DNA from: a virus | Taxonomy: Duplodnaviria > Heunggongvirae > Uroviricota > Caudoviricetes | DNA: 28,322 bases | IMG/VR virus record: IMGVR_UViG_2778261641_000008 | Strand: one strand, 5' to 3' | Shown here: positions 3,083 through 27,317 of the stretch, one piece after another | Layout: every line of letters begins with the position of its first letter | Numbering within the stretch: the stretch's first letter is position 1 | The notes under the pieces: model-generated | What the model was told of the DNA's origin: nothing | The model's database searches: none | What the model saw: the letters and a program-made list of their open reading frames with translations, nothing else | Translations under genes and position numbers: made by a program

Positions 3083-3343
3083 TTAATTCTGAGGTAAAGG
3101 CAAACTCATCTGATTGTTTCCCCTGTGTGAAGCTGGTAGCTCATGCCACGGGATACCTTCTGAAGAGTAAACGCCGGAGGCGTGTTTCGATGTGAATTTA
3201 TGGAAAGCTTCCAGTGTTGAGAAGCATACGCCGCATTCCAGATTGTTACACTGGTAATACTTTTGCCGCACGGTGTTTGAATCATTTTCCGGACGACTTG
3301 TGCGGATACGGGCAGATGCGCCACAAAGCGGACAACGGAACAT
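3083..3343 (-). CDS. ogr: Ogr/Delta-type zinc-finger late transcription activator
   Basis: Translation starts MFRCPLCGASARIRTSR...YYQCNNLECGVCFSTLE, the Cys4 pattern and N-terminus characteristic of P2 Ogr. Confidence 0.85.
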   Translation of the reverse strand: MFRCPLCGASARIRTSRPENDSNTVRQKYYQCNNLECGVCFSTLEAFHKFTSKHASGVYSSEGIPWHELPASHRGNNQMSLPLPQN

Positions 3344-3534: not shown

Positions 3535-4557
3535 ATGGGAAGAGATATAACGCTGTACCCTAAAAAAGCAACTAGAAACGAACTTAAAAATTACCTTGAA
3601 AATTTAGGTTTTAAAAGGTGTAAACATTTGTGGGAATGGCCCCAAGGAACGTTGAATTACTCTTGGTTTGATGATACGGACTTCAAATCTACAGATGGAG
3701 TTTCGGCTGATATATATCCTGTTTCAAATGACGAATTACACATATCTGGTAATAAATGGGCATTGCATGTGCGTAATTTATATAGCGCTAGTTGGCATGA
3801 TGTAAAAATGCTTAATGATGTTCTAAAAGGCGCAAGGAGTCTTTTTGGTGGAACACTTATAGGTGATTATGGGAAAAATAGGTACGCTCCTCTATGGAAG
3901 GATTCTAGTAGTCCGATCAGTCGTGGCATTTCTTCAATATTTAATCATGTCCATCATGAGATTTCCGCTGTTAAACATGCCTTACCTGAACCTTCTATTA
4001 AATTAAACCTACCGGAAGATGGCGGTTTATCCGAATACTTTGATTACATGCAATGTATGGATCCCAGTAGAGTTATATATAATGGATTAGTACCTTTTGC
4101 GGTTGCTATGTTTGAATACTTTTTCTCTAGAGCTTTTCAAATACTTATAAAGTACGATCCTTTCGCAATAGCAAAAAGAACATCGTATAAGCAAAAAGTT
4201 GATTTTGACATTCTGCTTGAGATAGAGAAAGGAAATATTTCAATAGAAAGTGTTATTGCAAGAAATTACACTTTTCAAAACTTAACCCACCTAAACAAAG
4301 CATATAAAGAGTGGCTGGATATAGATGTGAGAGCGATTCTTTATAAGAAAAAAAGAATTGGAAAATCAGTTGATTTTCTTGAGAATCGAATTTCTGAAAT
4401 CATACAATATAGACATGGGATAGTTCATCACTTTGAGTTGGATAGGACCTTAAATCGGGATGGATATATTCATATATTAGATGCGATAGAAAAAAGCATA
4501 ATTGAATTTATCCATTACATAGAAGGCAAATACAAATTTAAATTAAATGCGTATTAA
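3535..4557 (+). CDS. Hypothetical AT-rich cargo protein (340 aa) with C-terminal RHGIVH (Rx4H, HEPN-like) motif; candidate abortive-infection or defence protein
   Basis: Single long ORF in a markedly AT-rich island. AGGTGA RBS 7-8 nt before ATG at 3535. Hairpin at 4586-4609 downstream. Not recognisable as any P2 core protein. Motif QYRHGIVHHF near the C-terminus. Confidence 0.6.
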   Translation: MGRDITLYPKKATRNELKNYLENLGFKRCKHLWEWPQGTLNYSWFDDTDFKSTDGVSADIYPVSNDELHISGNKWALHVRNLYSASWHDVKMLNDVLKGARSLFGGTLIGDYGKNRYAPLWKDSSSPISRGISSIFNHVHHEISAVKHALPEPSIKLNLPEDGGLSEYFDYMQCMDPSRVIYNGLVPFAVAMFEYFFSRAFQILIKYDPFAIAKRTSYKQKVDFDILLEIEKGNISIESVIARNYTFQNLTHLNKAYKEWLDIDVRAILYKKKRIGKSVDFLENRISEIIQYRHGIVHHFELDRTLNRDGYIHILDAIEKSIIEFIHYIEGKYKFKLNAY

Positions 4558-4585
4558 GCAATCAACCTTACATAGGGATGACAAA

Positions 4586-4609
4586 GTCCGCTTCTGACAC
4601 GGAGCGGAC
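4586..4609. terminator. Stem-loop between the convergent 3535-4557 gene and D (GTCCGCTTC...GGAGCGGAC)
   Basis: Imperfect 8-9 bp inverted repeat followed by a T-rich stretch; lies between two convergent stop codons. Confidence 0.4.
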
Positions 4610-4677
4610 CGTCGTTTATGTTTAATTCTATACTGTAAACTTGCCAGTTTAAGTTTGAGCTAATATGTCTAAGTTGC

Positions 4678-5787
4678 TCACTCTGTTTCTGCTATCCATT
4701 CCGGGATTTTTGCCTCAAGCTCAAGCTGTGTGGTAAAGCCGCTGTTATCAATGGTGTGCTCGGCTTTCGCAATAATCCAGTCCTGATTATCAATCTCGCT
4801 TTTAAATCCTGTTACCGTGCCATGCATTTCGGGGTAGAGTTCTGCACGTCCACGCACCAGCGTGATGGAAAATAATGCGGCTCCGCGTTGTAGCTGCTGC
4901 CACTTTGCCGCCGCTGCGCGTCTTGCTGCCTGCTCGTTCTGATAAGTCTTGCGTAACACAAACACATTGCCTTCCGCGCCTTCCATATAATCACCTTCAC
5001 GGCTGCTGCTTTTCTCCTTTTTGGGTTTTGGCGGTTTGCGGCGTTTCACGCTGACTTTTTTCTTTTTCCCGTAATTAAGATCAAGCCAGTAAGCGCGTAC
5101 CCCCGTATACGCCTCGCGGTCAGCAATGCGGAACTGATGGCGATCGCCGCTGCTGCGTGTGATGGCGAACGATGGCAACGGCTGGCCCTGTGCGTTCACG
5201 CCACCGCCGGGCATGATGAATAACAGATTACCGCTTTTTACCGTGGTGATTGCGCCCAGCATTTCCGCCATGCGCGTAAGGAAGGACATGTCGCTTTCTT
5301 CAGTCTGGTCGGCGTGGTCGATTTCGATATCCATCAGCATTTCGCTGATTTGCGGTTTCAGGCTGTACCGATGAGCGATGGCGGATACCACACGTTCAAC
5401 GGTCACATCATGCCAGGACGCCTCACGTTTAACATTAAATTCATCCCGAAAATCTGCGCTTCTGGCTGAAACAGTCAGCCTGTCCGGCGGTCCTTCGTGA
5501 GCGATTTCATCAACAATGTAAGTGCCTTTTTCTGTCAGCGGTTCCCCTTTCCAGCCAATGAGAACCGTCAGACGCGCGCCCCGTGGCGGTAGCTGCAACT
5601 GGCCATCGGCATCATCCAGCGTGATGGTGAGCTGGTCCGCCTCAAATCCCCGGTTGTCGGTCAGTGACAGGCTCATCAGGCGTTCTGCCACGCCGGACAG
5701 CGTTTTACCCTCGGCGAGAATATCAAAATCCGGCATTTTCACGGGGTCTGTGCCCTGACTGAGCAATTGCATGGTGGTGTCGGTCAT
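4678..5787 (-). CDS. D: P2 gpD-like tail protein (late control gene D family)
   Basis: ORF track frame 4678-5919. Preferred start is ATG at 5787, preceded by GGGAGGG 5 nt upstream. Protein reads MTDTTMQLLSQGTDPVKMPDFDILAEG, about 369 aa. Confidence 0.85.
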   Translation of the reverse strand: MTDTTMQLLSQGTDPVKMPDFDILAEGKTLSGVAERLMSLSLTDNRGFEADQLTITLDDADGQLQLPPRGARLTVLIGWKGEPLTEKGTYIVDEIAHEGPPDRLTVSARSADFRDEFNVKREASWHDVTVERVVSAIAHRYSLKPQISEMLMDIEIDHADQTEESDMSFLTRMAEMLGAITTVKSGNLLFIMPGGGVNAQGQPLPSFAITRSSGDRHQFRIADREAYTGVRAYWLDLNYGKKKKVSVKRRKPPKPKKEKSSSREGDYMEGAEGNVFVLRKTYQNEQAARRAAAAKWQQLQRGAALFSITLVRGRAELYPEMHGTVTGFKSEIDNQDWIIAKAEHTIDNSGFTTQLELEAKIPEWIAETE

Positions 5788-5944
5788 CTGTTCCCTCCCT
5801 GTGCGGCATGGTCGCATGTGCGTGCGGAGGGGGTTACTGCTTTTTGTTGTCGCCGTGGCGGGAGAATAGCGCAGGGGTGAGATTACGCGCGTGGTGGGTG
5901 ATGATTGTTGCTGAATCATTTAACGGATACAAGGGGCTGAAGCT

Positions 5945-7129
5945 ATGAGTGAAACTCGTTTTCATGGTGCCCGTGTTACGGAAAATACCGACCTGGTAAC
6001 AGCGATTAACGATGTTGATTCCAGCGTTATCGGTATCGTGGCAACGGCGGATGATGCGGACGCGAAGCTGTTCCCGCTGAACAAGCCCACATTGCTGACC
6101 CGCGTCAATGACGTGCTGGGAAAATGCGGAACAACGGGGACGCTTTATCGTGCGCTTAAGGCCATCGCAGACCAGGTGAGCACAAAGGTGATCGTCGTTC
6201 GCGTGGCTGAACACAAAGAAGAAGACGGAAAGACGCAGGATCAACTGGTTATCGGTGGTTCTGAGGATGACGGCAGCTATACGGGGATGTATGCGCTGCT
6301 TGTTGCAGAGCAGGATGAAAGCATCGGATACCGTCCGCGTATTCTGGCCGCGCCGGAGCTGGACACGGAGGCTGTAACAAAATCCCTGTGCGTGATTGCA
6401 GGTAAACTGCGCGCGTTTGTGTATGCCTCATGTCACGGCTGTAACACGATGGCTGAGGCGATTACCTATCGCCAGAAATTCAACGAACGTGAGGTGATGC
6501 TCTTATGGCCGGACTTCATCGCCTACAACCCGAAAAGTGGCAAAAACGAAACGTTCCCCGCGCCTGCCTATGCGTGCGGCCTTCGTGCGTACATTGACCA
6601 TGAGCAGGGGTGGCACAAATCACTGTCCAACGTTCCGGTTAAAAATGTGCTGGGGATGTCGAGGCATGTGTTCTGGTCGTTGCAGGCCGAAGACAGCGAT
6701 GCCAACAGCCTCAACAACAAAGAAATCACGACCATTATTCGTCGCAACGGGTTCCGCTTCTGGGGCAACCGCACACCGGAAACGAACGCCTACATCTTTG
6801 AGGTGTATACCCGAACCGCACAGGTGCTGGCTGATTCAATTGCGGAAGCGCAGTTTGAAACCATCGACAGTCCACTGACGCCTGCGAACGTGAAGGATGT
6901 TATCAGTGCCATCAGGGCAAAACTGGATTCGCTGGTTACTGCCGGGAAACTGATTGGCGCGGAGTGCTGGTATGACGTGGTGGATAACGGCACCACGGAT
7001 TTACGTCAGGGGCGTGTGCGTATTCGCTACAAATATACGCCCGTTCCGCCACTGGAAGACATGGAGCTTTACCAGACGTTTACTGATGAATTCTTTGGTC
7101 CCGCATTTGCGGTGCTGGGAGGTGCCTGA
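5945..7129 (+). CDS. FI: Contractile tail sheath protein (P2 FI)
   Basis: 394 aa; the FPLNKP...GTLY...AIADQ motifs resemble P2 FI. AAGGGG RBS. Stop overlaps the FII start (TGATG). Confidence 0.9.
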   Translation: MSETRFHGARVTENTDLVTAINDVDSSVIGIVATADDADAKLFPLNKPTLLTRVNDVLGKCGTTGTLYRALKAIADQVSTKVIVVRVAEHKEEDGKTQDQLVIGGSEDDGSYTGMYALLVAEQDESIGYRPRILAAPELDTEAVTKSLCVIAGKLRAFVYASCHGCNTMAEAITYRQKFNEREVMLLWPDFIAYNPKSGKNETFPAPAYACGLRAYIDHEQGWHKSLSNVPVKNVLGMSRHVFWSLQAEDSDANSLNNKEITTIIRRNGFRFWGNRTPETNAYIFEVYTRTAQVLADSIAEAQFETIDSPLTPANVKDVISAIRAKLDSLVTAGKLIGAECWYDVVDNGTTDLRQGRVRIRYKYTPVPPLEDMELYQTFTDEFFGPAFAVLGGA

Positions 7130-7641
7130 TGGCTGTACCAAAACATCTTCGCTTTTTTACGTTGTTTGTGGATGGTGAAAACGAAGTGGGTAAAGTGACA
7201 TCCGTCACGCCGCCCAAACTGACGCGCAAAACCGACAGCTATCGTGGTGGTGGCATGATGGGGGCGGTAAGTATTGATCTCGGTCTGGACGACTCCGCGC
7301 TTGATGCGAGTTTTGTTATGGGGGGCGCTGTTCGTGCGCTGTTCCTTAAATATGGCGGCACGATTGACGGCACGCTGCTGCGTTTTGCGGGTGAATACTA
7401 CACCGATGCAGAAAGCGATCTGTATGAAATCGAGATGCGCGGACGTGTGACGGAAATTGATATGGGGGAAGCCAAACAGGGCGAAGCCACATCACACACT
7501 TACGCTGTCAAAAACACCTACTACAAGCTGAGCGTTAACGATCGCCCGCTGTGGGAAATCGACCTGTTGAACCACATCTACCGGAAGGACGGCAAGGACA
7601 TTGTGCCTGACCGTATCCGTTCCGCGCTTGGGCTTGGCTGA
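7129..7641 (+). CDS. FII: Tail tube protein (P2 FII)
   Basis: 170 aa; SVTPPKLTRKTDSYRGGGM...RFAGEY...EIDMGEAKQGE matches my recollection of P2 FII. Confidence 0.9.
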   Translation: MAVPKHLRFFTLFVDGENEVGKVTSVTPPKLTRKTDSYRGGGMMGAVSIDLGLDDSALDASFVMGGAVRALFLKYGGTIDGTLLRFAGEYYTDAESDLYEIEMRGRVTEIDMGEAKQGEATSHTYAVKNTYYKLSVNDRPLWEIDLLNHIYRKDGKDIVPDRIRSALGLG

Positions 7642-7696
7642 TAAGTAATATGCAGGCGGCGCAGTGCGTCGCCTCTGACTGAAAAGGAGACAACTG

Positions 7697-8071
7697 ATGA
7701 AAGACATCGATACTGAAACCCGGAATAACACCGTGGCGGATGATGTGACGGCAGGTGAGGATATGGCTGTCGAACGTGGCGTAAAACTGACCCGACCAAT
7801 TGAGCGTGGTGGCGAAAAAATCACGTATGTGGAGATCACCGGGGCTATTGAGCAGGCTGGATCCCTGCGTGGTCTGTCGCTGTCTGATGTGCTGAATCTG
7901 AAAGCGGATACCATGTTCACGCTGTTGCCTCGCGTGACCTCGCCACGACTGGATGAAGTGATGATTAAAAAAATGTCGTCACGCGATTTTATTCAGTTGT
8001 GCGCTGTGGCTGTAAATTTTATGAGCGAGCCAGACTCTGGCGCGAAGAGCGTGCAGGAGACGGCAGCGTAA
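7697..8071 (+). CDS. E: Tail assembly chaperone (P2 E)
   Basis: 124-aa ORF between tail tube and tape measure, with an overlapping -1 frame ORF downstream. Confidence 0.75.
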   Translation: MKDIDTETRNNTVADDVTAGEDMAVERGVKLTRPIERGGEKITYVEITGAIEQAGSLRGLSLSDVLNLKADTMFTLLPRVTSPRLDEVMIKKMSSRDFIQLCAVAVNFMSEPDSGAKSVQETAA

Positions 8072-8235
8072 TCACCCTGGTGTGCTTTGAGCACATCGAA
8101 GATCTGGTGGCGGATATTGCCGCCATTTTTAACTGGTCGCCCGCCGAAATCTTCATGATGACGCCCGGCGAAGTGGTTAGCTGGCGCGAGCGGGCGGCAC
8201 TTCGCAGCGGGAATGCAGATAATGAAGACTCTTGA
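8017..8235 (+). CDS. E' extension reached by programmed -1 frameshift from E
   Basis: The -1 frame is open from 7969 to the stop at 8233-8235. An in-frame X_XXY_YYZ heptamer A_AAT_TTT lies at 8014-8020. The post-shift reading FYERARLWREE matches the track ORF 7999-8235. Confidence 0.55.
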   Translation, partial: FYERARLWREERAGDGSVITLVCFEHIEDLVADIAAIFNWSPAEIFMMTPGEVVSWRERAALRSGNADNEDS

Positions 8236-11029
8236 TATCCGGGTCGCTTTCAGCGCCGTTGACAGGCTGACCCGGCCTGCCGAAAACGCCCGCCGCCTGA
8301 TGGGGCAGTTTGGTGACTCCATCCAGCGAACGCAGGGGGCGCTCAAAAATCTCGAGCGTCAGGCGCGTTCATTTGAGCGCGCCCGTGACGCTGTCAGTAA
8401 AGCGGATGCGGGCATCGTGAAAGCACGACGCCAGCTTAACGCCCTTAATCAGTTACAACGCACGGGTACAGTGCTCAGCGAAAAACAACAAAAGCTGATG
8501 CAGCAGTTAAGCACCCGGCTTGAACGCCTGAATGAATCGCGCACACGGGAAATTCAAAAAATGCGGGAGCTTGGCGGAGAGCTGAAACGCCACGGCATTT
8601 CCCTGACAGGCAGCGATAACACCATCCAGCAGGCCATCAGACGCACCGAACAGTACAACAACCAGCTTGAACGCGAACGGCAGGCGCTTGCGCGTGTAAC
8701 GCGGGCGCGTGAGCGGTATTCGCGCGCGCAGGAAACAGCGGGAAAACTGAAAACAGGTGGTGCACTGGCAATTGGTGCGGCAGCGGCGGGCGGCTATGCT
8801 GCCGGGCGTTTTTTGCAGCCTGCGATCGGGTTCGGCAAAGAGATGTCCCGCGTTCAGGCACTGACGCGAATCGACAAAAACAGCCCGCAGTTTAAGGCGC
8901 TGCGTGAGCAGGCGTTAAAACTTGGCTCTGAAACACAGTTTACTGCGAGTGATGCCGCCAGTGGGCAGAGCTTTCTGGCAATGGCTGGTTTTACTCCGCA
9001 GGCCATTCAGGCCGCATTGCCCGGTGTTCTTAATATGGCGCTGGCAGGTGGCGTCGAACTCGGCGAGACGGCTGATATAGGCTCCAATATCCTCACACAG
9101 TTCAACCTGACAGCCGATCAAATGGACCGGGTTGGCGATACGCTGACAGCGGCATTCACCCGGACCAATACTGATTTACGCGCGCTGGGCGAAACCATGA
9201 AGTATACCGGTCCGGTTGCCGCAAAACTTGGTATCAGTCTTGAAGAAGCGGCAGCCATGGCCGGGATGCTTGCCAATAATGGTCTTCGCGGAAGCGATGC
9301 TGGTACGGCCATGCGCGCAAGTCTGTCCCGCCTTGCATCACCGCCAAAAGCTGCGGCTGATGCGCTGAAAGAGCTGGGAGTGTCAGTTGCTGACGCCAGA
9401 GGCAAAATGCGCCCGATGGAGGATGTGCTGCTTGATCTCTATAAGGCGACACAAAAATACGGACAGGTGGACCAGGTTTCCTTCTTCAAGGACATCGCCG
9501 GAGAAGAGGCGTTCGTTGGTTTGCAGACGCTTGTTGCGGCGGCTGGTTCAGGAGAGCTGCAAAAACTGACCAGAGAATTGCAGGGGGCAAGGGGAGAGGC
9601 CGATCGCGTCGCAAAAGTAATGGCCGATAATCTTGATGGGGACCTGAAAAATCTCGATAGCGCATGGGAAGGTCTTCGTATTCGCATCAGTGATCTGGTT
9701 GACGGTCCGCTGCGTTCTGTCACGCAGTGGCTCACGCGGGTGCTTGAAAAAAGCACCTCGCTGGCGCAGGCCCATCCGGTACTGACGCGCCAGCTACTGA
9801 TAGCAGGCGGTGCGTTGCTGGCAATGACTGCAACGATTGGCTCGTTGTCGCTGGTTATTGGGGTGCTTTACGGGAAGCTGGCCACCCTGCGTCTTGGTTT
9901 TGACATTCTTACCCGGTCAATGAATGTCGTCAGGGTGTTGCCTGCGCTGTGGGGAATGGTGACGGGTTCCGTTTCTTTGCTGGGAGGCGCTATCGGGGCG
10001 CTGTTCAGTCCGGTTGGTCTTATCGTGGCTGCGCTTGCCGGAGCTGCCGTTCTTATCTGGAAATACTGGGATCCCATCAGGGCATTTTTTGCCGGGGTGT
10101 TCGGCGGGATTATGGAAAGGCTGACCCCGTTGCGTGAAACCTTTGAACGGTTTGGTCCTGTTTTTGACGCAATCGGAAGCGGGATCAGCCAGGTGTTTAA
10201 CTGGTTTAAATCGCTGCTGTCACCGATGGAGTCCAGCAAGGAAACGCTGGATAAATGTACCAGTGCTGGCGAGATATTCGGTAACGTTCTTGGTGGCGCG
10301 CTACAGCTTGTTCTGACGCCTGCAAAAATGTTGCTGGATACGCTGGCGTGGATACTTGAAAAACTCGGTGTGCTTCCGGATGAAGCGGAAAGGGCGAGAA
10401 AGAAAATCGAAGACGCACAGCGTGCGGCCATTCTTCAGGACAAGGTTGCTCTGTTTCAGGGAGACATTGCGAAAATCAATCCGCCGAAGTCTGCGGAAAA
10501 TGGCAATGGCACCGGAGGCGATAAACCCAAAGACAACAAACCGCTCACAGACAGCAATACCGGCACGCTACGCAGACTCAGCAAAATTGCTGATAACACA
10601 GGTAAGCTGGTTGATGAGACAAAAAAACGTATTGGCCCCGGCGATATTGTCTTTAAGAACCTGCCCCGCGCACTTGCTGTTCGTGGGGAGTGGCAGGAGC
10701 GGAAGATTGCGCAGGTCAGTAAGCCTGCTTCCGCAATCAACATCACACCCGTGGTCCCGGCTCTGCTGCCTCCGGCGCTGGTCCCTGTTGTTGCGGCCAG
10801 CTCCCGCCCGGTGGCGGAGGCCATACGATCGCCAGTGGCATCAGTTCCTGCAACTTCCCGTAACCGGGAGCCTGTTGTCTCCGGATTTGGCGGTGAAATT
10901 CATGTTCATCTGCATAACGTTGTTACGCAGAATCCCCGCGAACTGGCGAAACTGGTCGGTGAAATGGTCAGGGCAGAGGTGGAACGGCGTGCTCGTGCCG
11001 GACGTGGCAGTTTTTACGATAAAGATTGA
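8213..11029 (+). CDS. T: Tail tape measure protein (P2 T)
   Basis: 938 aa; coiled-coil N-terminal half, Gly/Ala-rich hydrophobic middle segment, position between E/E' and U. Confidence 0.9.
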   Translation: MQIMKTLDIRVAFSAVDRLTRPAENARRLMGQFGDSIQRTQGALKNLERQARSFERARDAVSKADAGIVKARRQLNALNQLQRTGTVLSEKQQKLMQQLSTRLERLNESRTREIQKMRELGGELKRHGISLTGSDNTIQQAIRRTEQYNNQLERERQALARVTRARERYSRAQETAGKLKTGGALAIGAAAAGGYAAGRFLQPAIGFGKEMSRVQALTRIDKNSPQFKALREQALKLGSETQFTASDAASGQSFLAMAGFTPQAIQAALPGVLNMALAGGVELGETADIGSNILTQFNLTADQMDRVGDTLTAAFTRTNTDLRALGETMKYTGPVAAKLGISLEEAAAMAGMLANNGLRGSDAGTAMRASLSRLASPPKAAADALKELGVSVADARGKMRPMEDVLLDLYKATQKYGQVDQVSFFKDIAGEEAFVGLQTLVAAAGSGELQKLTRELQGARGEADRVAKVMADNLDGDLKNLDSAWEGLRIRISDLVDGPLRSVTQWLTRVLEKSTSLAQAHPVLTRQLLIAGGALLAMTATIGSLSLVIGVLYGKLATLRLGFDILTRSMNVVRVLPALWGMVTGSVSLLGGAIGALFSPVGLIVAALAGAAVLIWKYWDPIRAFFAGVFGGIMERLTPLRETFERFGPVFDAIGSGISQVFNWFKSLLSPMESSKETLDKCTSAGEIFGNVLGGALQLVLTPAKMLLDTLAWILEKLGVLPDEAERARKKIEDAQRAAILQDKVALFQGDIAKINPPKSAENGNGTGGDKPKDNKPLTDSNTGTLRRLSKIADNTGKLVDETKKRIGPGDIVFKNLPRALAVRGEWQERKIAQVSKPASAINITPVVPALLPPALVPVVAASSRPVAEAIRSPVASVPATSRNREPVVSGFGGEIHVHLHNVVTQNPRELAKLVGEMVRAEVERRARAGRGSFYDKD

Positions 11030-11035
11030 GGAGTC

Positions 11036-11530
11036 ATGGCCATGATGATGATCTACGGCATGTTTGTTTTTGAGCTGCGCACATTGCCGCATCAGCAGTT
11101 ACAGCAAAACAAAAGCTGGCGGCATGTGAAAAATGAACGCGTTAACCGTTCAGCAAGCTGGCAGTATATCGGCGCAGGTGATGATCGCATCGTGCTTTCC
11201 GGCGTGCTTTATCCTGAAATTACAGGTGGCGAAGTGTCGCTTTCGTTGCTGACCACACAGGCATATACAGGACGCCCCTGGCCTCTGATTGATGGTGTCG
11301 GGCAGATTTACGGCATGTATGTACTGACTGAAACGAATACGACCCGTTCCGAGTTTGATCGCTACGGTAAGGCGAAAAAGATAGAATTTTCACTGACCCT
11401 TGAACGCTGTGATGAGGATTTGCGGGAGCGTCTGCAATCCTCATCGTTCAGTGATATGCTGTCCGGCTTCAAAGATAAGGTCACATCATCCCTTAACAGC
11501 GCGGCCAGTTCAGTTAAAGGACTGTTCTGA
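11036..11530 (+). CDS. U: Tail protein gpU
   Basis: 164 aa; MAMMMIYGMFVFELRTLPHQ...WRH...GVLYPEITGG..WPL..G resembles P2 gpU. Confidence 0.85.
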   Translation: MAMMMIYGMFVFELRTLPHQQLQQNKSWRHVKNERVNRSASWQYIGAGDDRIVLSGVLYPEITGGEVSLSLLTTQAYTGRPWPLIDGVGQIYGMYVLTETNTTRSEFDRYGKAKKIEFSLTLERCDEDLRERLQSSSFSDMLSGFKDKVTSSLNSAASSVKGLF

Positions 11531-11626
11531 TTTTACATTGCCGCTAATACCCTCATATTGGGTAATGGGCGGCTTGTTGTTATATAATATATCGTAGGTC
11601 CTGATAAAACTGTTGAGGTTTCTACT

Positions 11627-12805
11627 TTATAAAGAATTGCTACTTTCTAATTCTGGGTTTCTGGATCTATTTTTACAACCTAAATCCGAGTGGTAATTCG
11701 GTATATCGTTTGTCAAATCTTGTTTGATAGCATTAATTAAGATCATTATGTCGAATTTATGCATATCGTCGCCCCCTTCAGACCTTAGATGTTCGGATGT
11801 GGTGAGTTGAGTCGCTAATTTGCTGTTTGGCCCCCACACAATATTATTTTCGAATTTTCCTTCATGCATTCTGTTATTATATATACAGTATTGTCTAATG
11901 TTTAATGCACTGGCTAAATGTACAATGGCAGTATCTACAGTTATAACAAAATCAGCATGGCGAACCAATGCAAATGAACATCCGGCATCAGAAAATGGAG
12001 ATAGAGACACATTATCCAATCCATTGTGATTAATCTGTTTTCCCATATTAAAAACTATTGTGTGATATCCCTTAAGGTTATTAAGGTAAGCTAGTACTTT
12101 GTTTATCTGTTCATCAGATAAGGTTCTGCTATTCTGAGAGCCATAAGGGTTAAATATAACTAATTTTTTGTTTTTCTTCCTGAATTCATTTGCAACAATA
12201 TTTGCTGGTTCATATATTTTGTTGTCAAAATTAAGCGCTGCAGCATAATTATTATTTTTTATCTTTAGTAAAGATAAAACTTTTTTCATTCTTTCAGATG
12301 TGTGAATGGAACGATTATCGATTATATTTGTATCAAAAATAGTTACGGCAGGATGATTAAAACAGATAGAGTGTTTAGGTCTAAGTAAATGTAGTGTTTG
12401 CAATCTGGTTATCGCTGTGTTATCAAAATTTGAGAAGTCAACAACAAGATCTACATTCAGTTTTTTTATCTTTGCTTTTAGTTCGTTAAATTTATTTTTC
12501 TCGTAAGATATAAAGGCATCCACGCCAACAATATCAGTAAAGAGGAATGATACTCTTGAAGGTGCTATCACATATACCACCATACCGGATTTTTGAAGTT
12601 GTTTAATAAACCCTGAGGTAACGATGCCGTCACCAATGGCTTGCATGTGCATGAAAATGCACACTGTTTTATAACTATCCGGCTGTAATGATGTTTTCCT
12701 TCTGTATCGCATTTTTAGAAATGCCAGTCTGGCCTTCGTCTTTATCTTTTTTGTTTTAATATTTCGCTGTCTGTTAAGCTGTTTTAATGATGAAATAACA
12801 TTCAT
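11627..12805 (-). CDS. Glycosyltransferase family 9 (LPS heptosyltransferase-like) protein; AT-rich cargo
   Basis: Track ORF is 11627-12865 with a TTG start; ATG candidates at 12835, 12805 and 12712, start unresolved. N-terminal KTVCIFMHMQAIGDGIV and C-terminal FVITVDTAIVHLASALN resemble the WaaC/WaaF-type signatures (SSMGDV and VDTGLSHLAAAL). Confidence 0.65.
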   Translation of the reverse strand: MNVISSLKQLNRQRNIKTKKIKTKARLAFLKMRYRRKTSLQPDSYKTVCIFMHMQAIGDGIVTSGFIKQLQKSGMVVYVIAPSRVSFLFTDIVGVDAFISYEKNKFNELKAKIKKLNVDLVVDFSNFDNTAITRLQTLHLLRPKHSICFNHPAVTIFDTNIIDNRSIHTSERMKKVLSLLKIKNNNYAAALNFDNKIYEPANIVANEFRKKNKKLVIFNPYGSQNSRTLSDEQINKVLAYLNNLKGYHTIVFNMGKQINHNGLDNVSLSPFSDAGCSFALVRHADFVITVDTAIVHLASALNIRQYCIYNNRMHEGKFENNIVWGPNSKLATQLTTSEHLRSEGGDDMHKFDIMILINAIKQDLTNDIPNYHSDLGCKNRSRNPELESSNSL

Positions 12806-12899
12806 AATGGTACCCTGAAATTCCAAATCACACATGTCATCCGAAATGAGCAGGGTACTATACAAAAAACTGGACTACAATGGTTTGAAATGAAAGCCT

Positions 12900-13499
12900 T
12901 TATGCTTGTTTACTCCTTGATTCCACTGGGGAAGCTGGCCACTCAATATCCGGTGCTCTTGATGTATCAACACGGTTCAGCAGCACTCGATACTTCTTCC
13001 AGGCTTCCAGCAACGAGATTTCTTCCTCCGTTGCGATTTCCAGATCTACAGCATCCTGAAGTGGCGCAATATGCTCACTGGCTACCTGCATCAGGCTGTT
13101 TTTTGTTTCTTCTGCCTCCCGGATCCGGAACAGTTTTTCTGCTTCCGTATCCTTCACCCAGGCTGTGCCGTTCCACTTCTGATATTCCCCTCCCGGCGAC
13201 AACCAGGTAACATTTTCCGGTAACGGACCGAGTTCAGAAATAAATAACGCGTCGCCGGAAGCCACGTCATAAACCGTTTTACCACGATGATCTTCAACGA
13301 GATGCCAAGACGCCCCATCACTGTTGAAAACAGCCACGAAGCCAGCTGGAATATCTGGCGGAGCAATATCAGTACTATTTGCAGGCAGACCTGTATGAGG
13401 TGGAATGTATGCATCACCTTCACCAATAAATTCATTGGTTCCGACCAGCAGATTATAAATTTTTATGGTTCGTGGTTGTTCACTCATTCTGAATGCCAT
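12900..13499 (-). CDS. G: Tail fibre assembly protein (P2 G / Tfa family)
   Basis: 199 aa immediately downstream of the tail-fibre fragment; sequence typical of tail-fibre assembly chaperones. Confidence 0.8.
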
Positions 13500-14611
13500 T
13501 ATGCAAGCCTCACAATATAGTTAAATGCGATGTTTTTTACGGTGTTTTCCGCGTTGCCATAAGCGGCAATGGTAATGGTGTGTGTGTGCGAACCAATAGC
13601 GAGCGTATGTGTATGCGCACCTATTGCTACTGTGTGAGTATGAGCTCCTGCGCTTAATACGCGATTACTTGCTGTCTTGCTTGTGTTAGTTGCATGCATT
13701 CCACCACCGGTACCGGGAGTTTCTGCGTATGCTGAAGTATTGTTGTAAGCAAAGTTGTGTGTATGTGCTCCGGTGTTATTTGTGGATTTAGTTCCGTAAT
13801 CAAACGACGATGTGGTTTTCGTCCCCAAATCCGTACTGGATGCGCTGGCGCTGTGGGTGTGCGATTTAATGCCGTCCTGTTCCTGAGACAATACGGCCCG
13901 ACCACTGGCAGGTTTGCCCTTAATCGTCCAGCCACGCATATCAGGGATCACGCCTGACGGATAAGCGACTGCAAGTTTCGGGTAGGCAGATTTGTCAAAA
14001 GTCTGCCCCTGCATCAGGGCATAACCAGACGGAACGGTATCCGATGGCCACGGGATTGGTGCGCCAGGCGGATAAAACTGCTCTGATGGCGTATAGAGTG
14101 AATAAACTGTACCGTCCGTTAACCCTTCCGGCTTATTAGCAGAATATGCTGGTGACGGATGAATCGTTACGCTGGCATTACTGGTATAATCCCATTGAAT
14201 ATTTACACCAGTCGCATAATTTCCGATTGCAACGTAAATATCGTAAGTATCACCAGATGTATTGACCCAGGCAAAATTTGTAAACCCTGCCGATGTGCGC
14301 TGCCATAAAGCACCAGTAATCCCCTTCGGATTACCATTACCTGCACGCAAAACAATTTCAGATATACCTGCCTGTTGAGGTGAACCGACGTTATATCCAG
14401 CGCCACCAATCAACGTAATTGAAACAACAGAACTCGCCTGTGGCATGGTTACCGTTGCTAATTTGAACCAACCAGCACCACCTCTGAATGACATTGTTGT
14501 TGAGTTAAGCGTACCAATATCTTTCGGTGTCAGTGTTATATCCGCTGAAAGCGCCTTACCATTCACCTTACGGGCAGAAGGTAACGGTTTTAAATTTTCG
14601 TGTTGTGGTAC
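13499..14611 (-). pseudogene. H: C-terminal fragment of tail fibre protein (P2 H-like); N-terminal part missing
   Basis: The frame opens at 14611 with no credible start (track start 14566 is GTG). C-terminal GAHTHT repeats ([24 protein letters not shown]). The upstream neighbour is truncated O rather than the baseplate genes. Confidence 0.7.
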
Positions 14612-14958
14612 TCATGCTTAATCGTCCGGATACTGGAATAGATTTTCTTGCCGTCAGCGACAAGCTGCTTCATGCGCTCGGTCGGTTCGATTTCTGCATA
14701 CAGCGCAGTACGTCCGGCCAGCGGGCCTTCCGTAATATCTTCCGTACTCAGCGCGGTGACATCGCCCATTGCGGAAAATTCGCTTGACGGGCATGGCGAG
14801 AGATAGTGCTCAACGTTCACGCGGGCAGCGTAAACATCCGGGTTGAAGTTCTCGGCGGCTTCACGCAGATGTACCGGGCTGATTTCGCGGCCATCAACAG
14901 TTGATCCGGAGACAGCCACGCGAAACTTTTTGCGGAATGTCTTTTTTTCATTAGCCAT
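14590..14958 (-). pseudogene. O: N-terminal fragment of capsid scaffold/protease gpO, about 122 of the roughly 280 aa expected
   Basis: MANEKKTFRKKFRVAVSGSTVDGREISPVHLREAAENFNPDVYAARVNVEHY parallels the P2 gpO N-terminus as I recall it. The ORF ends after KKIYSSI plus 12 unrelated residues, directly beside the tail-fibre fragment. Confidence 0.7.
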
Positions 14959-15112
14959 AGTTTTTGCCCCTCTGACTGGTTCTTCAGTCATGATGGCAAA
15001 GCGTAACAGGCTGATACAAAGGGCTTTTGTTGTAAGAAAACGGCCAGAACAGGGGGTTAAGGAGAACGGTTTCGCGCGCGGGTAATCTTCCTGTAATTAC
15101 TCAGGGGGAGCA

Positions 15113-16864
15113 ATGATTCAGGACGCTTTTGTGCGCCAGCGTGCGCGGCAACTTTACTGGCAGGGTTATCCGCCCGCAGAAATATCACGTCTGATGGGAA
15201 TAAACCCGAACACGATTTATGCGTGGAAAAAACGCGACCAGTGGGATGAAACGCCACCCGTGCAGCGTGTCACGCAGTCCATCGATGCGCGCCTCATCCA
15301 GCTTACTGAAAAACAGAATAAAACAGGCGGTGACTTTAAGGAAATAGACCTGCTGACCCGGCAGCTTAAAAAGCTGCATGATGGCCAGCCGGATGTGATG
15401 GCCGCAGGAAAGAAAGGCCGGGCGAAAAAACTCAAAAATCATTTCACGCCGGAACAGATTGCCGCACTGCGGGAAAAAATCATCAGCAGGCTGGAGTGGC
15501 ATCAGCGGGGCTGGTTTGACTCCCTGACACTTTGCAGGGAAGCCGGGATACGTAACAGGATGATCCTGAAATCCCGACAGATTGGGGCGACCTGGTATTT
15601 TGCACAGGAAGCTCTGCTGATGGCGCTGCGTGACGATGTGGCGCAACCTTACCAGCGTAACCAGATTTTTTTGTCTGCGTCGCGTCGTCAGGCGTTCCAG
15701 TTTAAAAGCATTATTCAGAAGGCCGCGGCTGAAGTTGATGTGGAGCTGAAAGGGGGCGATAAAATCATCCTCTCCAACGGCGCAGAGCTGCATTTTCTCG
15801 GCACTTCTGCTGCGTCGGCACAGTCCTATACGGGCAATTTTTATTTTGATGAATTTTTCTGGGTCAGTCGCTTTGCTGAACTGCGCAAGGTGGCTGGCGC
15901 TATGGCAACCCTCAGCGGACTGCGGCGCACCTACTTCTCCACGCCATCCACCGAAACGCACGAGGCATACGCCTACTGGAACGGCGACCGCTGGAACGAG
16001 AAAAAGGCCTCGCATAAACGCCAGCGTTTTTCTGTGGACAGGAAAACGCTGCATAACGGGCTTATCTGCCCTGACCGGACGTGGCGGCAAATTGTCACGC
16101 TGGAAGATGTGGTTAATCACGGCTGGAAACACACCGATATTGACGAAATCCGTGATGAAAACACCGAAGACGAGTTCCTCAATCTCTATATGTGTGAGTT
16201 TGTTCGCGAAGGGGAATCGGCATTTAACCTGAATATCCTGATTGGCTGCGGTGTTGACGGATACGACGACTGGAAAGACTGGAAACCTTTTGCTCCCCGC
16301 CCGATGGGGAATCGTCCGGTATGGATTGGGTATGACGCAAACGGCAGCAGTGGCAACGGCGACAGCGGCGCTGTGTCCGTGGTGGTTCCTCCGGCTGTTC
16401 CTGGTGGCCGTTTTCGAACGGTGGAGACGCGACGCGTTCAGGGGCTGGAGTTTGAAGAACAGGCCAGAGTCATTGAAGAGTTCACGTATCGTTACAACGT
16501 GGAACACATCGGCATTGATGTGACGGGCGGGAACGGGGAGGCTGTTTATCAGATAGTGAAACGGTTTTTCCCTGCTGCTATTCCGTACACCTTCACGCTG
16601 TCATCAAAACGGTCTCTGGTACTGAAAATGCTGCAAATAATGCGTGCCGGGCGGTGGGAATACGATCGCGCCGAACGCGAGCTGGTCGCGGCCTTTAACG
16701 CCGTGCGTAAGGTGAAAACACCGGGCGGCTTTATCACTTACGAAACGGACCGCGCGAGGGGGATCAGCCACGGCGACCTTGCGTGGGCAACCATGCTTGC
16801 TGTCATTAACGAACCGATTGGCGGCGAAGGAGAAAACGAGCGTTTCACGGTTATGGAGTTCTGA
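15113..16864 (+). CDS. P: Terminase large (ATPase) subunit, P2 gpP
   Basis: 583 aa; divergent from O and followed by the portal gene with an ATGA overlap, as in the P2 Q-P / O arrangement. Confidence 0.9.
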   Translation: MIQDAFVRQRARQLYWQGYPPAEISRLMGINPNTIYAWKKRDQWDETPPVQRVTQSIDARLIQLTEKQNKTGGDFKEIDLLTRQLKKLHDGQPDVMAAGKKGRAKKLKNHFTPEQIAALREKIISRLEWHQRGWFDSLTLCREAGIRNRMILKSRQIGATWYFAQEALLMALRDDVAQPYQRNQIFLSASRRQAFQFKSIIQKAAAEVDVELKGGDKIILSNGAELHFLGTSAASAQSYTGNFYFDEFFWVSRFAELRKVAGAMATLSGLRRTYFSTPSTETHEAYAYWNGDRWNEKKASHKRQRFSVDRKTLHNGLICPDRTWRQIVTLEDVVNHGWKHTDIDEIRDENTEDEFLNLYMCEFVREGESAFNLNILIGCGVDGYDDWKDWKPFAPRPMGNRPVWIGYDANGSSGNGDSGAVSVVVPPAVPGGRFRTVETRRVQGLEFEEQARVIEEFTYRYNVEHIGIDVTGGNGEAVYQIVKRFFPAAIPYTFTLSSKRSLVLKMLQIMRAGRWEYDRAERELVAAFNAVRKVKTPGGFITYETDRARGISHGDLAWATMLAVINEPIGGEGENERFTVMEF

Positions 16865-17910
16865 TGAGCAGAAAAAATAAAAAAGTGCGCATGAGTTCAC
16901 GCATTGATCTCGCTGATGCGCTCAGGAAAGAATCATCGCTCAGTGCATTCACATTTGATGGTCCTTATCGCCTGACCGGGCATGACCTGCTGGACAATAT
17001 GTACTGTGCTGATAACGGGCGGTGGTATGAAACCCCGGTGGACTGGTACGGTCTGGCAAGAGCAGCCCGGCAAACGTCCTGGCATCAGTCTGCGCTTTAC
17101 TTTAAGCGCAATGTATTACTCGGTTGCTACATCCCGCACCCGCTGCTTTCCCGGCAGGATTTCTCGGCGCTGGCGCTGGACTGGTTTGTGTTCGGTAACG
17201 CATTCCTTGAGCTTCGAAGCAATATGCTCGGCGAACCGCTTAAATTACGGCACGCACTGGCGAAATACATGCGACGCGGAAGCGATCTTGAATCATGGTG
17301 GTATGTGCAGGATGGCAAGGACGCGTTTCAGTTTCGCCCTGGCAAAGTGTGCCACCTGATGAATCCGGACATTAACCAGGAAATTTACGGCATGCCGGAA
17401 TATCTTGGCGCATTACTCTCGGCCAGCCTGTCTCATTCGGCGGACATGTTCAGAAAACTGTATTACGACAATGGATCCCACGCCGGGTGCATCATCTACA
17501 TCGGTGCAGCGCAGGTAAACCGCGAAAGCATGGACTCCCTGAAAGAAACGTTACAGGGTGCGCGTGGTAGTGGTGCGTTTAAAAACGTGCTCATCCATGC
17601 GCCCAACGGGGGCAAAGAGGGGGTGCAAATTTTGCCGTTCCAGCAGATCACCGCAAAGGATGAGTTCATGAATGTTAAGGCGGCATCCCGTGATGATGTG
17701 CTGGCTGCGCACCGCGTTCCGCCGCAACTGATGGGGGCGATGCCGGGCGAAAAAAGTGCGTTTGGTGATGTGGAGAAGGCCGCGCGGGTTTACGCAATTA
17801 ACGAGCTGATGCCCGTCATGGAGGCCATGAAGCACATCAATGACTGGCTTGGCGAAGAGGTGATCCGCTTTAACCCTTACGCACTGTTAGACACCCAGTC
17901 CACATCCTGA
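16864..17910 (+). CDS. Q: Portal protein, P2 gpQ
   Basis: 348 aa; position and size as for P2 Q; transcribed toward the expected cos end. Confidence 0.9.
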   Translation: MSRKNKKVRMSSRIDLADALRKESSLSAFTFDGPYRLTGHDLLDNMYCADNGRWYETPVDWYGLARAARQTSWHQSALYFKRNVLLGCYIPHPLLSRQDFSALALDWFVFGNAFLELRSNMLGEPLKLRHALAKYMRRGSDLESWWYVQDGKDAFQFRPGKVCHLMNPDINQEIYGMPEYLGALLSASLSHSADMFRKLYYDNGSHAGCIIYIGAAQVNRESMDSLKETLQGARGSGAFKNVLIHAPNGGKEGVQILPFQQITAKDEFMNVKAASRDDVLAAHRVPPQLMGAMPGEKSAFGDVEKAARVYAINELMPVMEAMKHINDWLGEEVIRFNPYALLDTQSTS

Positions 17911-19030: not shown

Positions 19031-19342
19031 TTACTCAGGAAATAACGCCCGGATATTCCCAGCCATCTGGCTGGTTATCTTAGCCACTGGTGCAGACTGT
19101 GCTTCAAACTTTTTTGAGCTGATTTGTGTCACAGGTAACATCTCATCATCAGCCCATGCGGCCAGTCGGTAAGCCTCTGCCGGATTCGTCTTCAGAAGTG
19201 CCAGCCCGGCCAGAAAAGCCACGCGTTGGCCGCTTTTGCGGGCTTCTGGTGTAAGGCTGTCCAGCCAGGCGCATGCTTCTCCTTCGTTCTTGACGGCAGC
19301 TGGCTTCAGATAGAAACTTATCCGTCTGGTTGGTGTTGTCAT
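19031..19342 (-). CDS. parR: ParR-like ribbon-helix-helix centromere-binding adaptor
   Basis: ATG at 19342 with AAGGAG 6 nt upstream, 5 nt after the parM stop. N-terminus MTTPTRRISFYLKPAAV...RVAFLAGLAL resembles my recollection of plasmid R1 ParR. Confidence 0.65.
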   Translation of the reverse strand: MTTPTRRISFYLKPAAVKNEGEACAWLDSLTPEARKSGQRVAFLAGLALLKTNPAEAYRLAAWADDEMLPVTQISSKKFEAQSAPVAKITSQMAGNIRALFPE

Positions 19343-19346
19343 TGGT

Positions 19347-20306
19347 TTACTCCTTGTCCATTGCGTACAGCCCATTAACCAGAGCAAACTGTGGCACCCC
19401 GTCCGCGATGAAAGTCGCATTAACTCCGCAGGCTTCGCGGATAGCGGGTGCCACAATCTCCGCCCCGCCACCGACAACCATCACCCGCCCGTAACCCGAA
19501 AAACCCGCCAGCGCGCGGATCACGCGTTGTTTCAGTGTTTCTTCCTTTTCACGAATAACCACCATCAGGCTGTCGTAATGCGCGTCATTGTGGATGTGCT
19601 GGCGCAGCCAGGCTTCATCATGGCGATGTTCGATAATGGTATTGGCGATGTGGTGACTGGTACGCATACCGTTAGTGGCCATCACCGACAGTACGGCATC
19701 GGCCATCAGGGAAACGCCTACGTGTGGATCGCAAAACACCTGGCTGATACCTGCCAGTTGTCCCTGAACCTTTGCCACATCCAGCGTGGTTCCGCCTAAA
19801 TCCACAATCAGCAGGGATTCAAACGGACTCATGTCAGCCAGTGCTTTAAAGCCAGCCGGAATGGATTCAGGCATAACCCGTACGTTACGGATAGTGAATG
19901 CTTCGCCGTTCTGGTACTCCACCGGGCGCATGACGTTCGCTTTTTTGCGGTTGATGTTGGCCATGTCCGGCTGTGCGTTTGTGTCGAAATATTCGCTCAG
20001 TGGCAGGGTGACAACCACATCCACTTCCTGTGGTGTGATGCCTGATTTGACCAGCGCGTGATGAATGGCAATGACATTCACATCGCTGTACTGGTATTGC
20101 GTGTCGGTCGTCTGGACAAAGCGATCGCTGACCGGATCAAAACCATAGCGCACGCCATCAAGCATGTAGTTCGCGGGCTGCGTGCCACCGAACGGCGCAG
20201 ACCATTCCGACTTGAAGCTGTTCGGGCTGATGGCGTTGCGGCGTTCGCCGTTCTCAGTCCATGCCAGCTTGATGTTGGTGGAGCCGTCATCGATACAAAT
20301 TTTCAT
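19347..20306 (-). CDS. parM: ParM/StbA actin-like segregation ATPase
   Basis: 319 aa with IDDGSTNIKL, ISPNSFK, YSDVNVIAIHHAL, DLGGTTLD, VVGGGAE and LVNGLY, the characteristic ParM motifs in the right order. Confidence 0.85.
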   Translation of the reverse strand: MKICIDDGSTNIKLAWTENGERRNAISPNSFKSEWSAPFGGTQPANYMLDGVRYGFDPVSDRFVQTTDTQYQYSDVNVIAIHHALVKSGITPQEVDVVVTLPLSEYFDTNAQPDMANINRKKANVMRPVEYQNGEAFTIRNVRVMPESIPAGFKALADMSPFESLLIVDLGGTTLDVAKVQGQLAGISQVFCDPHVGVSLMADAVLSVMATNGMRTSHHIANTIIEHRHDEAWLRQHIHNDAHYDSLMVVIREKEETLKQRVIRALAGFSGYGRVMVVGGGAEIVAPAIREACGVNATFIADGVPQFALVNGLYAMDKE

Positions 20307-20338
20307 GTCGCTTTTCCTTATGTTGATTAATTAATCGC

Positions 20339-20373
20339 TTACGGGATTCTGAAATCCCGTTTTTGCCTGTTTT
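20339..20373. repeat. Copy 1 of a 35-bp hairpin element (TTACGGGATTCTGAAATCCCGT + T-rich tail), between A stop and parM start
   Basis: 8-bp stem ACGGGATT/AATCCCGT followed by TTTTTGCCTGTTTT. A perfect 12-bp palindrome GATTAATTAATC at 20325-20336 is adjacent. Confidence 0.8.
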
Positions 20374-20382
20374 ATGCGCGCT

Positions 20383-27221: not shown

Positions 27222-27317
27222 GGCCAGAAAACTGGTTAGACCTGCTTTTTGTCTGGTCTGATTATTGCTGGAAAGAGGCTGGAGAAATTGTAGAGCGGTT
27301 CATTGGAGGGCTTCGTA

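Follow-up and report, generated by a model that had tools for sequence, protein, structure and literature searches.

The 28,322-nucleotide stretch of DNA analysed here (the window) is very probably best read as a P88-type (Peduoviridae, Xuanwuvirus) defective prophage in an E. coli chromosome, in which gene D on the minus strand and FI through U on the plus strand represent the normal order of the lineage, the product of an ancient inversion, with a predicted late promoter between D and FI. The gene order itself is an ordinary, already known architecture.

Gene identities were assigned by PHROGs and Pfam profile matches. Both sets of calls agree with the initial annotation that FI through U lie on the plus strand, whereas D, G and the fragments of H and O lie on the minus strand. 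Gene D (4678–5787; phrog_52, E = 4e-164; Pfam Phage_GPD) encodes an intact baseplate hub of 369 aa occupying its full ORF, 99% identical to P88 D; its true ATG is at 5787, and a ribosome-binding site, GGGAGGG, is found at 5793–5799. Facing it are the tail sheath gene FI (5945–7129; phrog_23, E = 1e-125), the tail tube gene FII (7129–7641; phrog_55; major tail tube protein in the E. coli H1 annotation), the tail assembly chaperone pair at 7697–8235 (E, 7697–8071, and the E' frame, 8080–8235; phrog_103; the corresponding position in E. coli H1 carries the annotation of a GpE family protein), the tape measure gene T (8213–11029; phrog_28, E = 1e-217) and the tail protein gene U (11036–11530; phrog_76, E = 5e-75), the last of the operon. 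An intact gene for the late-gene activator Ogr (3083–3343, minus strand; Pfam Ogr_Delta, E = 5e-14; cysteine motif CX2C-X24-CX4C) is located downstream of D, the position it has in P2 and P88, with a low-GC insert between the two genes.

Homology to P88 stops 7 nt past the U stop codon. At this variable spot P88 carries an invertase gene and an invertible fibre segment, P2 carries fun(Z), and the window carries a gene for a family 9 glycosyltransferase (GT9; 11627–12865, minus strand; Pfam Glyco_transf_9; RefSeq annotation in E. coli H1). With a GC content of about 33%, the GT9 gene is low-GC extra cargo acquired at the variable spot adjoining U. The minus strand continues with the tail fibre assembly gene G (12900–13499; phrog_105, E = 3e-99), a remnant of the tail fibre gene H (13499–14615; a C-terminal ORF of 355 aa at 13499–14566 plus about 11 N-terminal codons; phrog_295, profile positions 443–794) and an N-terminal fragment of the scaffold gene O (about 14633–14958; phrog_73 and phrog_11933, profile positions 2–119), whose start was set by colinearity with P88 O.

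Comparison with a close intact relative, which had been proposed as a check on the inversion, shows that window positions 4668–11537 (D plus FI through U) align with P88 34443–27593 as one colinear block of 6.9 kb with 92.9% identity. In the P88 annotation, O to G are on the plus strand, U-T-E-FII-FI on the minus strand and D-ogr on the plus strand; the relative strands are those of the window, which thus has the gene order of P88-like phages (Xuanwuvirus, Peduoviridae). The aligned total is about 18.3 kb at 92–97% identity, deletions and cargo replacements precluding a whole-genome value. P88 forms plaques, its burst size is about 65 and its virions have been seen in electron micrographs (PMC5285337). 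Citrobacter phage PhiSM also forms plaques and lysogenises K-12 (PMC6456863). Both share with the window the order and strands of ogr, D, FI-FII-E/E'-T-U, the fibre genes, O, P, Q, A and the early region; their common parts are 92–97% identical in DNA, and the D–FI spacer has equal length (157 bp) and 98% identity. Relative to both, the window lacks about 7.9 kb between the middle of O and the I/H junction as well as about 1 kb within H, and has a low-GC ORF of 340 aa inserted between ogr and D. It differs from P88 also in having the GT9 gene in place of the invertase and invertible fibre segment, and in its integrase/attachment region, where identity is about 72% over 193 nt only.

The starting point for regarding this order as unusual was P2, in which, as the annotation of its record confirms, FI-FII-E-T-U-D form a single operon that runs in the same direction as the O and V operons. 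Because direct DNA alignment of the window with P2 gave only three short matches of about 70% identity, the two were compared at the level of genes and annotation. The P2 F operon (pF-FI-FII-E-E'-T-U-D) agrees with the window in its genes and their internal order, with an Ogr-type activator gene after D. However, D is its last gene, directly downstream of U, whereas in the window FI through U are inverted and D stands alone on the opposite strand, facing FI across 157 bp. The P2-type order is taken as ancestral, and the direction of change comes in part from general knowledge of other P2-like phages.

The divergent arrangement is widespread. The junction between the D and FI starts was found at 94% identity or more in eight phages (13 records), and at least 80% of window positions 4500–13600, which span the block, occurs in one piece in 378 of 5,426 complete E. 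coli genomes. Divergent D/FI junctions are also present in Klebsiella phage 3LV2017 (Reginaelenavirus), Serratia phage KSP20 and Salmonella phages SEN4 and SEN5, although these have other hosts and cargo genes and D proteins only 63–73% identical to that of the window, an indication of the great age of the arrangement. The spacers of 3LV2017 and KSP20 contain a perfect TGT-N12-ACA dyad, and SEN4 and SEN5 hold the junction of a related Salmonella locus (L034) whose dyad is also perfect. Among 80 species-representative loci, FI and D are divergent in 41 (about 23 genera) and D follows U as in P2 in 37; these loci are the best matches to the D of the window, so that the true limits of the branch, too, are drawn partly from general knowledge of other P2-like phages. 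The divergent set coincides with the classifiable loci in which D reaches 61% identity or more to that of the window. A neighbour-joining tree of D proteins separated the two arrangements cleanly: all 45 branch members had one orientation, and the P2-type loci all fell on the other side. Judged from these sequence comparisons, the divergent order is the mark of a deep branch within the P2-like phages of Enterobacterales. A description of this branch-wide split was not found in the searchable literature, and the xenorhabdicin paper does not discuss gene orientation.

The initial annotation had interpreted the inversion as an old rearrangement in a decaying prophage. The segment is indeed inverted with respect to P2, and old. 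The degenerative part of that interpretation, a one-off event that uncoupled D from its operon, might seem natural in a defective prophage with fragments of O and H, no genes from N to I and a gene order unlike that of P2. It is nevertheless highly improbable, since plaque-forming P88 and PhiSM carry exactly this orientation with a nearly identical spacer, the arrangement recurs across the genera and E. coli genomes counted above, and none of the genes D, FI, FII, E, T, U and ogr is disrupted; we rejected it on the existence of viable phages with the same order. Misorientation of the block during assembly, the other possibility raised at the outset, found no support and is the least credible of all the explanations considered: both junctions agree in independent complete genomes and phage records, which come from many laboratories and were sequenced on many platforms, and this concurrence led us to reject it.

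The DNA invertase gene directly beside U in P88 invites a further explanation, namely that FI through U are flipped reversibly by a site-specific invertase, like the neighbouring fibre segment of that phage. The repeats of the P88 invertible segment, however, border the fibre segment only. As the initial annotation had stated, no inverted repeats flank the breakpoints in the window; the best pairs (25 nt at 80% and 17 nt at 82%) sit within the coding sequences of D and U and are at chance level. The search for recombinase sites that it had suggested returned no Hin/Gin-type crossover core (AAACCNNGGTTT-type, up to one mismatch allowed) in the window. Neither the window nor 3LV2017 contains an invertase ORF, and the 45 branch members show a single orientation. 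A programmed switch therefore has very little to recommend it, and the arrangement is better regarded as a fixed feature of the lineage.

The window is nonetheless a defective prophage of the P88 type and not a viable phage. Its set of virion genes is incomplete: it lacks N, M, L, X, R, S, V, W, J, I and the lysis genes, and has only fragments of O and H. Comparison with E. coli strain 165 shows that H has lost about 995 bp internally, out of frame, near 14582. A second junction, at 14629–14632, joins O (at about codon 110) to the I/H boundary through a GATA microhomology, with about 7.9 kb of P88 (14636–22544) missing; none of the complete E. coli genomes searched has this junction. The defectiveness thus stems from these two deletions, the internal one in H and that running from O to the I/H junction; both are private to the strain and separate from the inversion.

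It had been argued that D, being divergent from FI, would need its own promoter between 5788 and 5944. The divergence is confirmed, and a conserved promoter-like architecture is present: the 157-bp spacer resembles a late promoter that would depend on Ogr and act in both directions. P2 late promoters have a TGT-N12-ACA consensus and depend on Ogr (PMC3931495). In promoters of this type the centre of the dyad lies about 55 nt upstream of the transcription start. The spacer contains a predicted Ogr-type activator dyad, TGTCGCCGTGGCGGGAGA (TGT-N12-AGA; 5848–5865), that would be common to both divergent promoters; it has five of the six P2 consensus positions, and 27 of 42 related spacers are perfect at the same place. 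On the D strand, the predicted −10-like hexamer GACCAT (5808–5813) lies 44–49 nt from the dyad centre, with a start near 5801 and a predicted leader of only about 14 nt. On the FI strand, the predicted −10-like hexamer is GATGAT (5900–5905), with a start near 5912. A −10-like element lacking a −35 consensus, as in P2-type late promoters, is found on both strands. A scan of 5788–5944 for sigma-70 consensus promoters returned no match, a result that fits an activator-dependent promoter and is uninformative taken alone.

Comparison of 42 spacers from the branch, in which conservation is inflated by common ancestry of related sequences, returned the dyad as TGT-N12-ACA in 27, TGT-N12-AGA in 13 and TCT-N12-AGA in two, always 78.5–88.5 nt from the start codon of FI; a perfect dyad arose in just 2.9% of shuffled spacers. 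On the FI strand, nAnnAT occurs 44–49 nt from the centre in all 42 (A45, A48 and T49 being invariant). On the D strand, the same element (A45, T49) occurs in 38, and in all 42 if a shift of 1 nt is allowed; the hexamer on this side is weaker in some lineages, e.g., GATCCT. The background at other offsets is 0–9 of 42. The 3LV2017 genome has only three perfect palindromic sites, two of which are those between P and O and between FI and D.

The geometry of the D–FI site matches that of pP, pO and pF in P2, three promoters for which the P2 record gives the transcription starts. At pP/pO of P2, one palindromic TGT-N12-ACA-type site lies midway between divergent genes, as in the D–FI spacer, with −10-like hexamers 44–49 nt from the centre on each side and no −35 consensus; the differences are that the P2 starts are annotated in the record whereas the D/FI pair is predicted from sequence, and that the dyad in the window is the TGT-N12-AGA variant. 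At P2 pF, the dyad lies about 83–88 nt upstream of FI and the −10 element 44–50 nt from its centre, as in the window. The pP/pO region of the window provides an internal reference: its activator dyad, TGTAAGAAAACGGCCAGA (15031–15048), is the identical TGT-N12-AGA variant, and its −10-like elements, TAATCT towards P and CATCAT towards O, lie 44–50 nt from the centre. The literature searched yielded no transcript mapping for any phage of this branch, for which reason the D promoter is a prediction, and no description of the D promoter or of this gene order.

The arrangement could also be a lineage feature in which the dyad serves pF alone and D is transcribed from an unrelated promoter in the spacer, constitutive or otherwise regulated. 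The distance from the dyad to FI is tighter than that to the D ATG (55–82 nt, with one outlier), and the hexamer on the D side is less uniform. Against this stand the −10-like element found at 44–49 nt on the D strand in 38–42 of the 42 spacers over a near-zero background elsewhere, the likeness to P2 pP/pO and the lack of a sigma-70 consensus promoter in the spacer scan. We consider a dyad dedicated to pF unlikely, although less so than the explanations weighed above.

The history of the arrangement can be pictured as follows. The segment from pF through U was very probably inverted in an ancestor common to many P2-like phages of Enterobacterales, one breakpoint lying immediately before pF and the other between U and D. 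The inversion became fixed and gave the order D (minus), FI-FII-E/E'-T-U (plus), a variable cargo gene and G-H through O (minus); phages that have it assemble infectious virions. It would also have left D about 70 nt away from the Ogr-binding palindrome of pF. From then on, the single dyad at 5848–5865 could activate transcription both ways, rightward from pF (−10 at 5900–5905, start near 5912) and leftward from a D promoter (−10 at 5813–5808, start near 5801), much as one site in P2 serves divergent pP and pO. The FI-through-U transcript would end at a hairpin behind U, and D would form a one-gene late transcript. The candidate terminator (11540–11583, plus strand) consists of a hairpin at 11540–11573 with a T-rich tail, a fold of −21.2 kcal/mol and a weak z score of −1.9. 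P88 has a hairpin at the equivalent spot, between U and the invertase gene; the hairpin behind U was absent from the predictions listed by a terminator scan. We see about an even chance that a single ancient inversion, tolerated thanks to the palindromic Ogr site, defines the branch, created a second bidirectional late promoter (pD/pF) on the pattern of pP/pO and gave D dosage control apart from that of sheath and tube.

The significance of these results is chiefly that of a correction: a gene order departing from that of P2 is no evidence that a prophage has decayed, and annotators or prophage-completeness tools templated on P2 would wrongly flag the whole branch. The D/FI junction is a simple marker dividing two deep lineages of P2-like phages. 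The arrangement also leads to the prediction that, in many enterobacterial phages and tailocin-like loci, D and FI would be transcribed from divergent late promoters under a single Ogr dyad.

The gene orientations reported in the initial annotation are borne out by gene calls based on PHROGs and Pfam. FI (5945-7129), FII (7129-7641), E (7697-8071, with the E' frame to 8235), T (8213-11029) and U (11036-11530) lie on the plus strand, as do P (15113-16864) and Q (16864-17910). The minus strand carries ogr (3083-3343), D (4678-5787), G (12900-13499), a C-terminal fragment of H (13499-14566), an N-terminal fragment of O (about 14633-14958) and replication gene A (20383-23205). The P2 record also agrees that FI-FII-E-E'-T-U-D form a single operon in that phage, transcribed in the same direction as the O and V operons. 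The window starts in E. coli chromosome (flk, 1-992, 99.8% identity to E. coli H1) and continues as P2-like prophage, including ParM/partition genes and an early region, up to an integrase (27303-28322) that runs off its end.

The initial annotation interpreted the arrangement as a degenerative inversion in a decaying prophage, which does not hold when close intact relatives are considered. By BLASTN, window 4668-11537, spanning D, the D-FI spacer and FI through U, forms one colinear alignment of 92.9% identity with positions 34443-27593 of Escherichia phage P88 (NC_026014.1; Xuanwuvirus, Peduoviridae). P88 is annotated as O..H-G (+), an alternative fibre segment plus invertase, U-T-E'-E-FII-FI (-) and D (+), exactly the arrangement of the window viewed on the opposite strand. 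When window 5450-6300, which covers the starts of D and FI, was used as a query for the junction, it was found in one piece at at least 94% identity in 13 records from eight phages (P88, P884B11, 500465-2, 520873, 503458, Shae_phiSM, PhiR44_2 and Chuche), and at lower identity in Klebsiella phage 3LV2017, 12 related Kp48xx records and Serratia phage KSP20. Salmonella phages SEN4 and SEN5 carry the junction as it occurs in a more distantly related sub-branch. P88 is plaque-forming: its latent period is 20 min, its burst about 65, and its virions have been imaged by electron microscopy (PMC5285337). PhiSM also forms plaques, lysogenises K-12 strains and was recovered as phage from transfected DNA (PMC6456863). 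Plaque-forming phages of this exact orientation are what the initial annotation itself had named as refuting a degenerative inversion. Assembly error is excluded, because the junction occurs in independent phage records and at least 80% of window 4500-13600 is present in a single place in 378 of 5,426 complete E. coli genomes.

GTDB representatives (one genome per species) were scanned with a D protein alignment, and the best 80 loci were classified by tblastn with FI, FII, T, U, D and Ogr. FI was divergent from D in 41 of these 80, comprising every classifiable locus with D at least 61% identical to that of the window; 37 had the P2 order, U lying immediately upstream of D, and two were unclear. 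The FI-divergent loci represent about 23 genera (Salmonella, Edwardsiella, Erwinia, Citrobacter, Enterobacter, Mixta, Pantoea, Kosakonia, Brenneria, Izhakiella, Chania, Serratia, Klebsiella, Raoultella, Xenorhabdus, Photorhabdus, Providencia, Rouxiella, Dryocola, Hafnia, Yersinia, Morganella and Pectobacterium). A further D/FI locus (L007) comes from a contig assigned to the Gram-positive genus Vagococcus (Vagococcus sp.) and shares 97% identity with the E. coli locus; its label is probably due to contamination or mislabelling of the assembly. ogr lies downstream of D in both locus types. A neighbor-joining tree of D proteins separates the FI-divergent and P2-order types cleanly (45 vs 38), which fits one ancient inversion. 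The P2 order is taken as ancestral, from more distant P2-like phages.

Relative to P2, the inverted piece begins just upstream of pF and extends through the end of U, in agreement with the limits first proposed (5788-11626). No meaningful inverted repeats flank FI..U, as had been noted, and a search for recombinase sites found no Hin/Gin-type crossover core. P88 homology ends 7 nt past the U stop codon, and U is followed by a weakly supported hairpin with a T-rich tail (11540-11583; z = -1.9), also present at the equivalent place in P88. The side adjoining U is a variable cargo spot: fun(Z) adjoins FI there in P2, and an invertase and invertible fibre segment adjoin U in P88, whereas the window carries a heptosyltransferase-like GT9 gene (11627-12865, minus strand, about 33% GC) between U and G. 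This is probably a cargo gene modifying host LPS, and it lies within window 4500-13600, of which the 378 genomes carry at least 80% in one piece.

Further genes were also observed. ParM-type plasmid segregation genes (19031-20306) are shared with P88 (gp17, gp18) and are unusual for P2. Low-GC genes between flk and the P88-like part encode a VasI/TagO-like protein (type VI secretion associated) and a zinc-ribbon protein; these and a Hok/Gef region occupy 1260-2490 and about 2750-2890, with the Hok/Gef toxin gene adjoining ogr inside the P88-homologous part. A low-GC (about 34%) 340-aa ORF at 3535-4557 (+), absent from P88, is inserted between ogr and D. It had no PHROG match and a sub-threshold Pfam HEPN_RiboL-PSP hit (22.5 bits vs a cut-off of 28.4), and may be a defence-type cargo gene.

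No co-directional gene precedes D, and we therefore agree with the initial reasoning that it requires its own promoter within the 157-bp spacer at 5788-5944. In P2 late promoters, Ogr binds a TGT-N12-ACA dyad (PMC3931495), and the divergent pP and pO share a single annotated P2 site, both with annotated starts 55.5 nt from its centre. The D-FI spacer of the window contains the dyad TGTCGCCGTGGCGGGAGA at 5848-5865, and the same variant, TGTAAGAAAACGGCCAGA, is found in the P/O spacer at 15031-15048. Across 42 distinct D-FI spacers (the window plus the 41 loci), the dyad was a perfect TGT-N12-ACA in 27, TGT-N12-AGA in 13 and TCT-N12-AGA in two; a perfect dyad appeared anywhere in only 2.9% of shuffled spacers. 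The distance from the dyad centre to the ATG is always 78.5-88.5 nt for FI and mostly 66-82 nt for D. In 3LV2017, the P/O and FI/D spacers hold two of the genome's only three fully palindromic TTGT-N12-ACAA sites. The two TCT-N12-AGA dyads belong to Providencia loci (L028 and L037), where both half-sites are altered symmetrically, which suggests that the site co-evolved with the DNA specificity of its activator.

When the 42 spacers were anchored at the dyad centre, an nAnnAT hexamer was found exactly 44-49 nt out on the FI strand in all of them. On the D strand, A45 and T49 occurred in 38/42, or 42/42 with a 1-nt shift allowed; the A-N3-T pattern was present in 0-9/42 at other offsets. In P2, the pO (GAAACT) and pP (TAGCCT) hexamers are both at 44-49 nt and that of pF (GAAAAT) at 45-50 nt, with annotated starts of the three at 55.5-58.5 nt. 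A sigma-70 consensus scan of 5788-5944 found no promoter, as expected for activator-dependent promoters, and the window Ogr is intact. Together with the dyad and hexamer geometry, this predicts that the D-FI spacer is a bidirectional late promoter, pD/pF, and D is probably expressed from this Ogr-type site. The predicted pF would have its -10 (GATGAT) at 5900-5905 and start near 5912; pD would use GACCAT at 5813-5808 (minus strand) and start near 5801, giving a D leader of about 14 nt that includes a GGGAGGG ribosome-binding site.

Real decay takes the form of deletions, mapped by comparison with P88 and a related prophage of E. coli strain 165 (NZ_CP020509.1). One, of about 995 bp and out of frame, lies inside H near 14582; the other, of about 7.9 kb, runs from about codon 110 of O to the I/H boundary and is joined at 14629-14632 via GATA microhomology. 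The O-I/H junction was common to none of the collection's complete E. coli genomes, and both deletions (14582-14632) are private to the window genome. With its head, lysis, tail-completion and baseplate genes deleted, the prophage is unable to make virions; D, FI-U, G and ogr are still intact. The closely related GT9-bearing prophage of strain 165, at another chromosomal site (ihfA-btuC), has an independent deletion fusing N' to 'I (30945-31919), and in E. coli H1 a different deletion again ends at an IS1 element. Central head, lysis and baseplate genes are repeatedly lost, with D, FI-U, GT9, G and H kept. In both strains RefSeq calls D only as a 266-aa "VgrG/Pvc8 family" protein (H1, 20179-20979; strain 165, 20020-20820) beside a spurious 93-nt pseudogene. 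Since both carry the complete 369-aa D ORF intact, the short call is an annotation artefact.

The window represents a known phage genus in defective form, its FI..U/D gene order can already be read from annotated public genomes of characterised phages, and the finding as a whole is ordinary. No discussion of the FI..U inversion or of a D promoter was found in the literature searched, and the predicted bidirectional pD/pF would thus be a small new addition, not a new kind of system.
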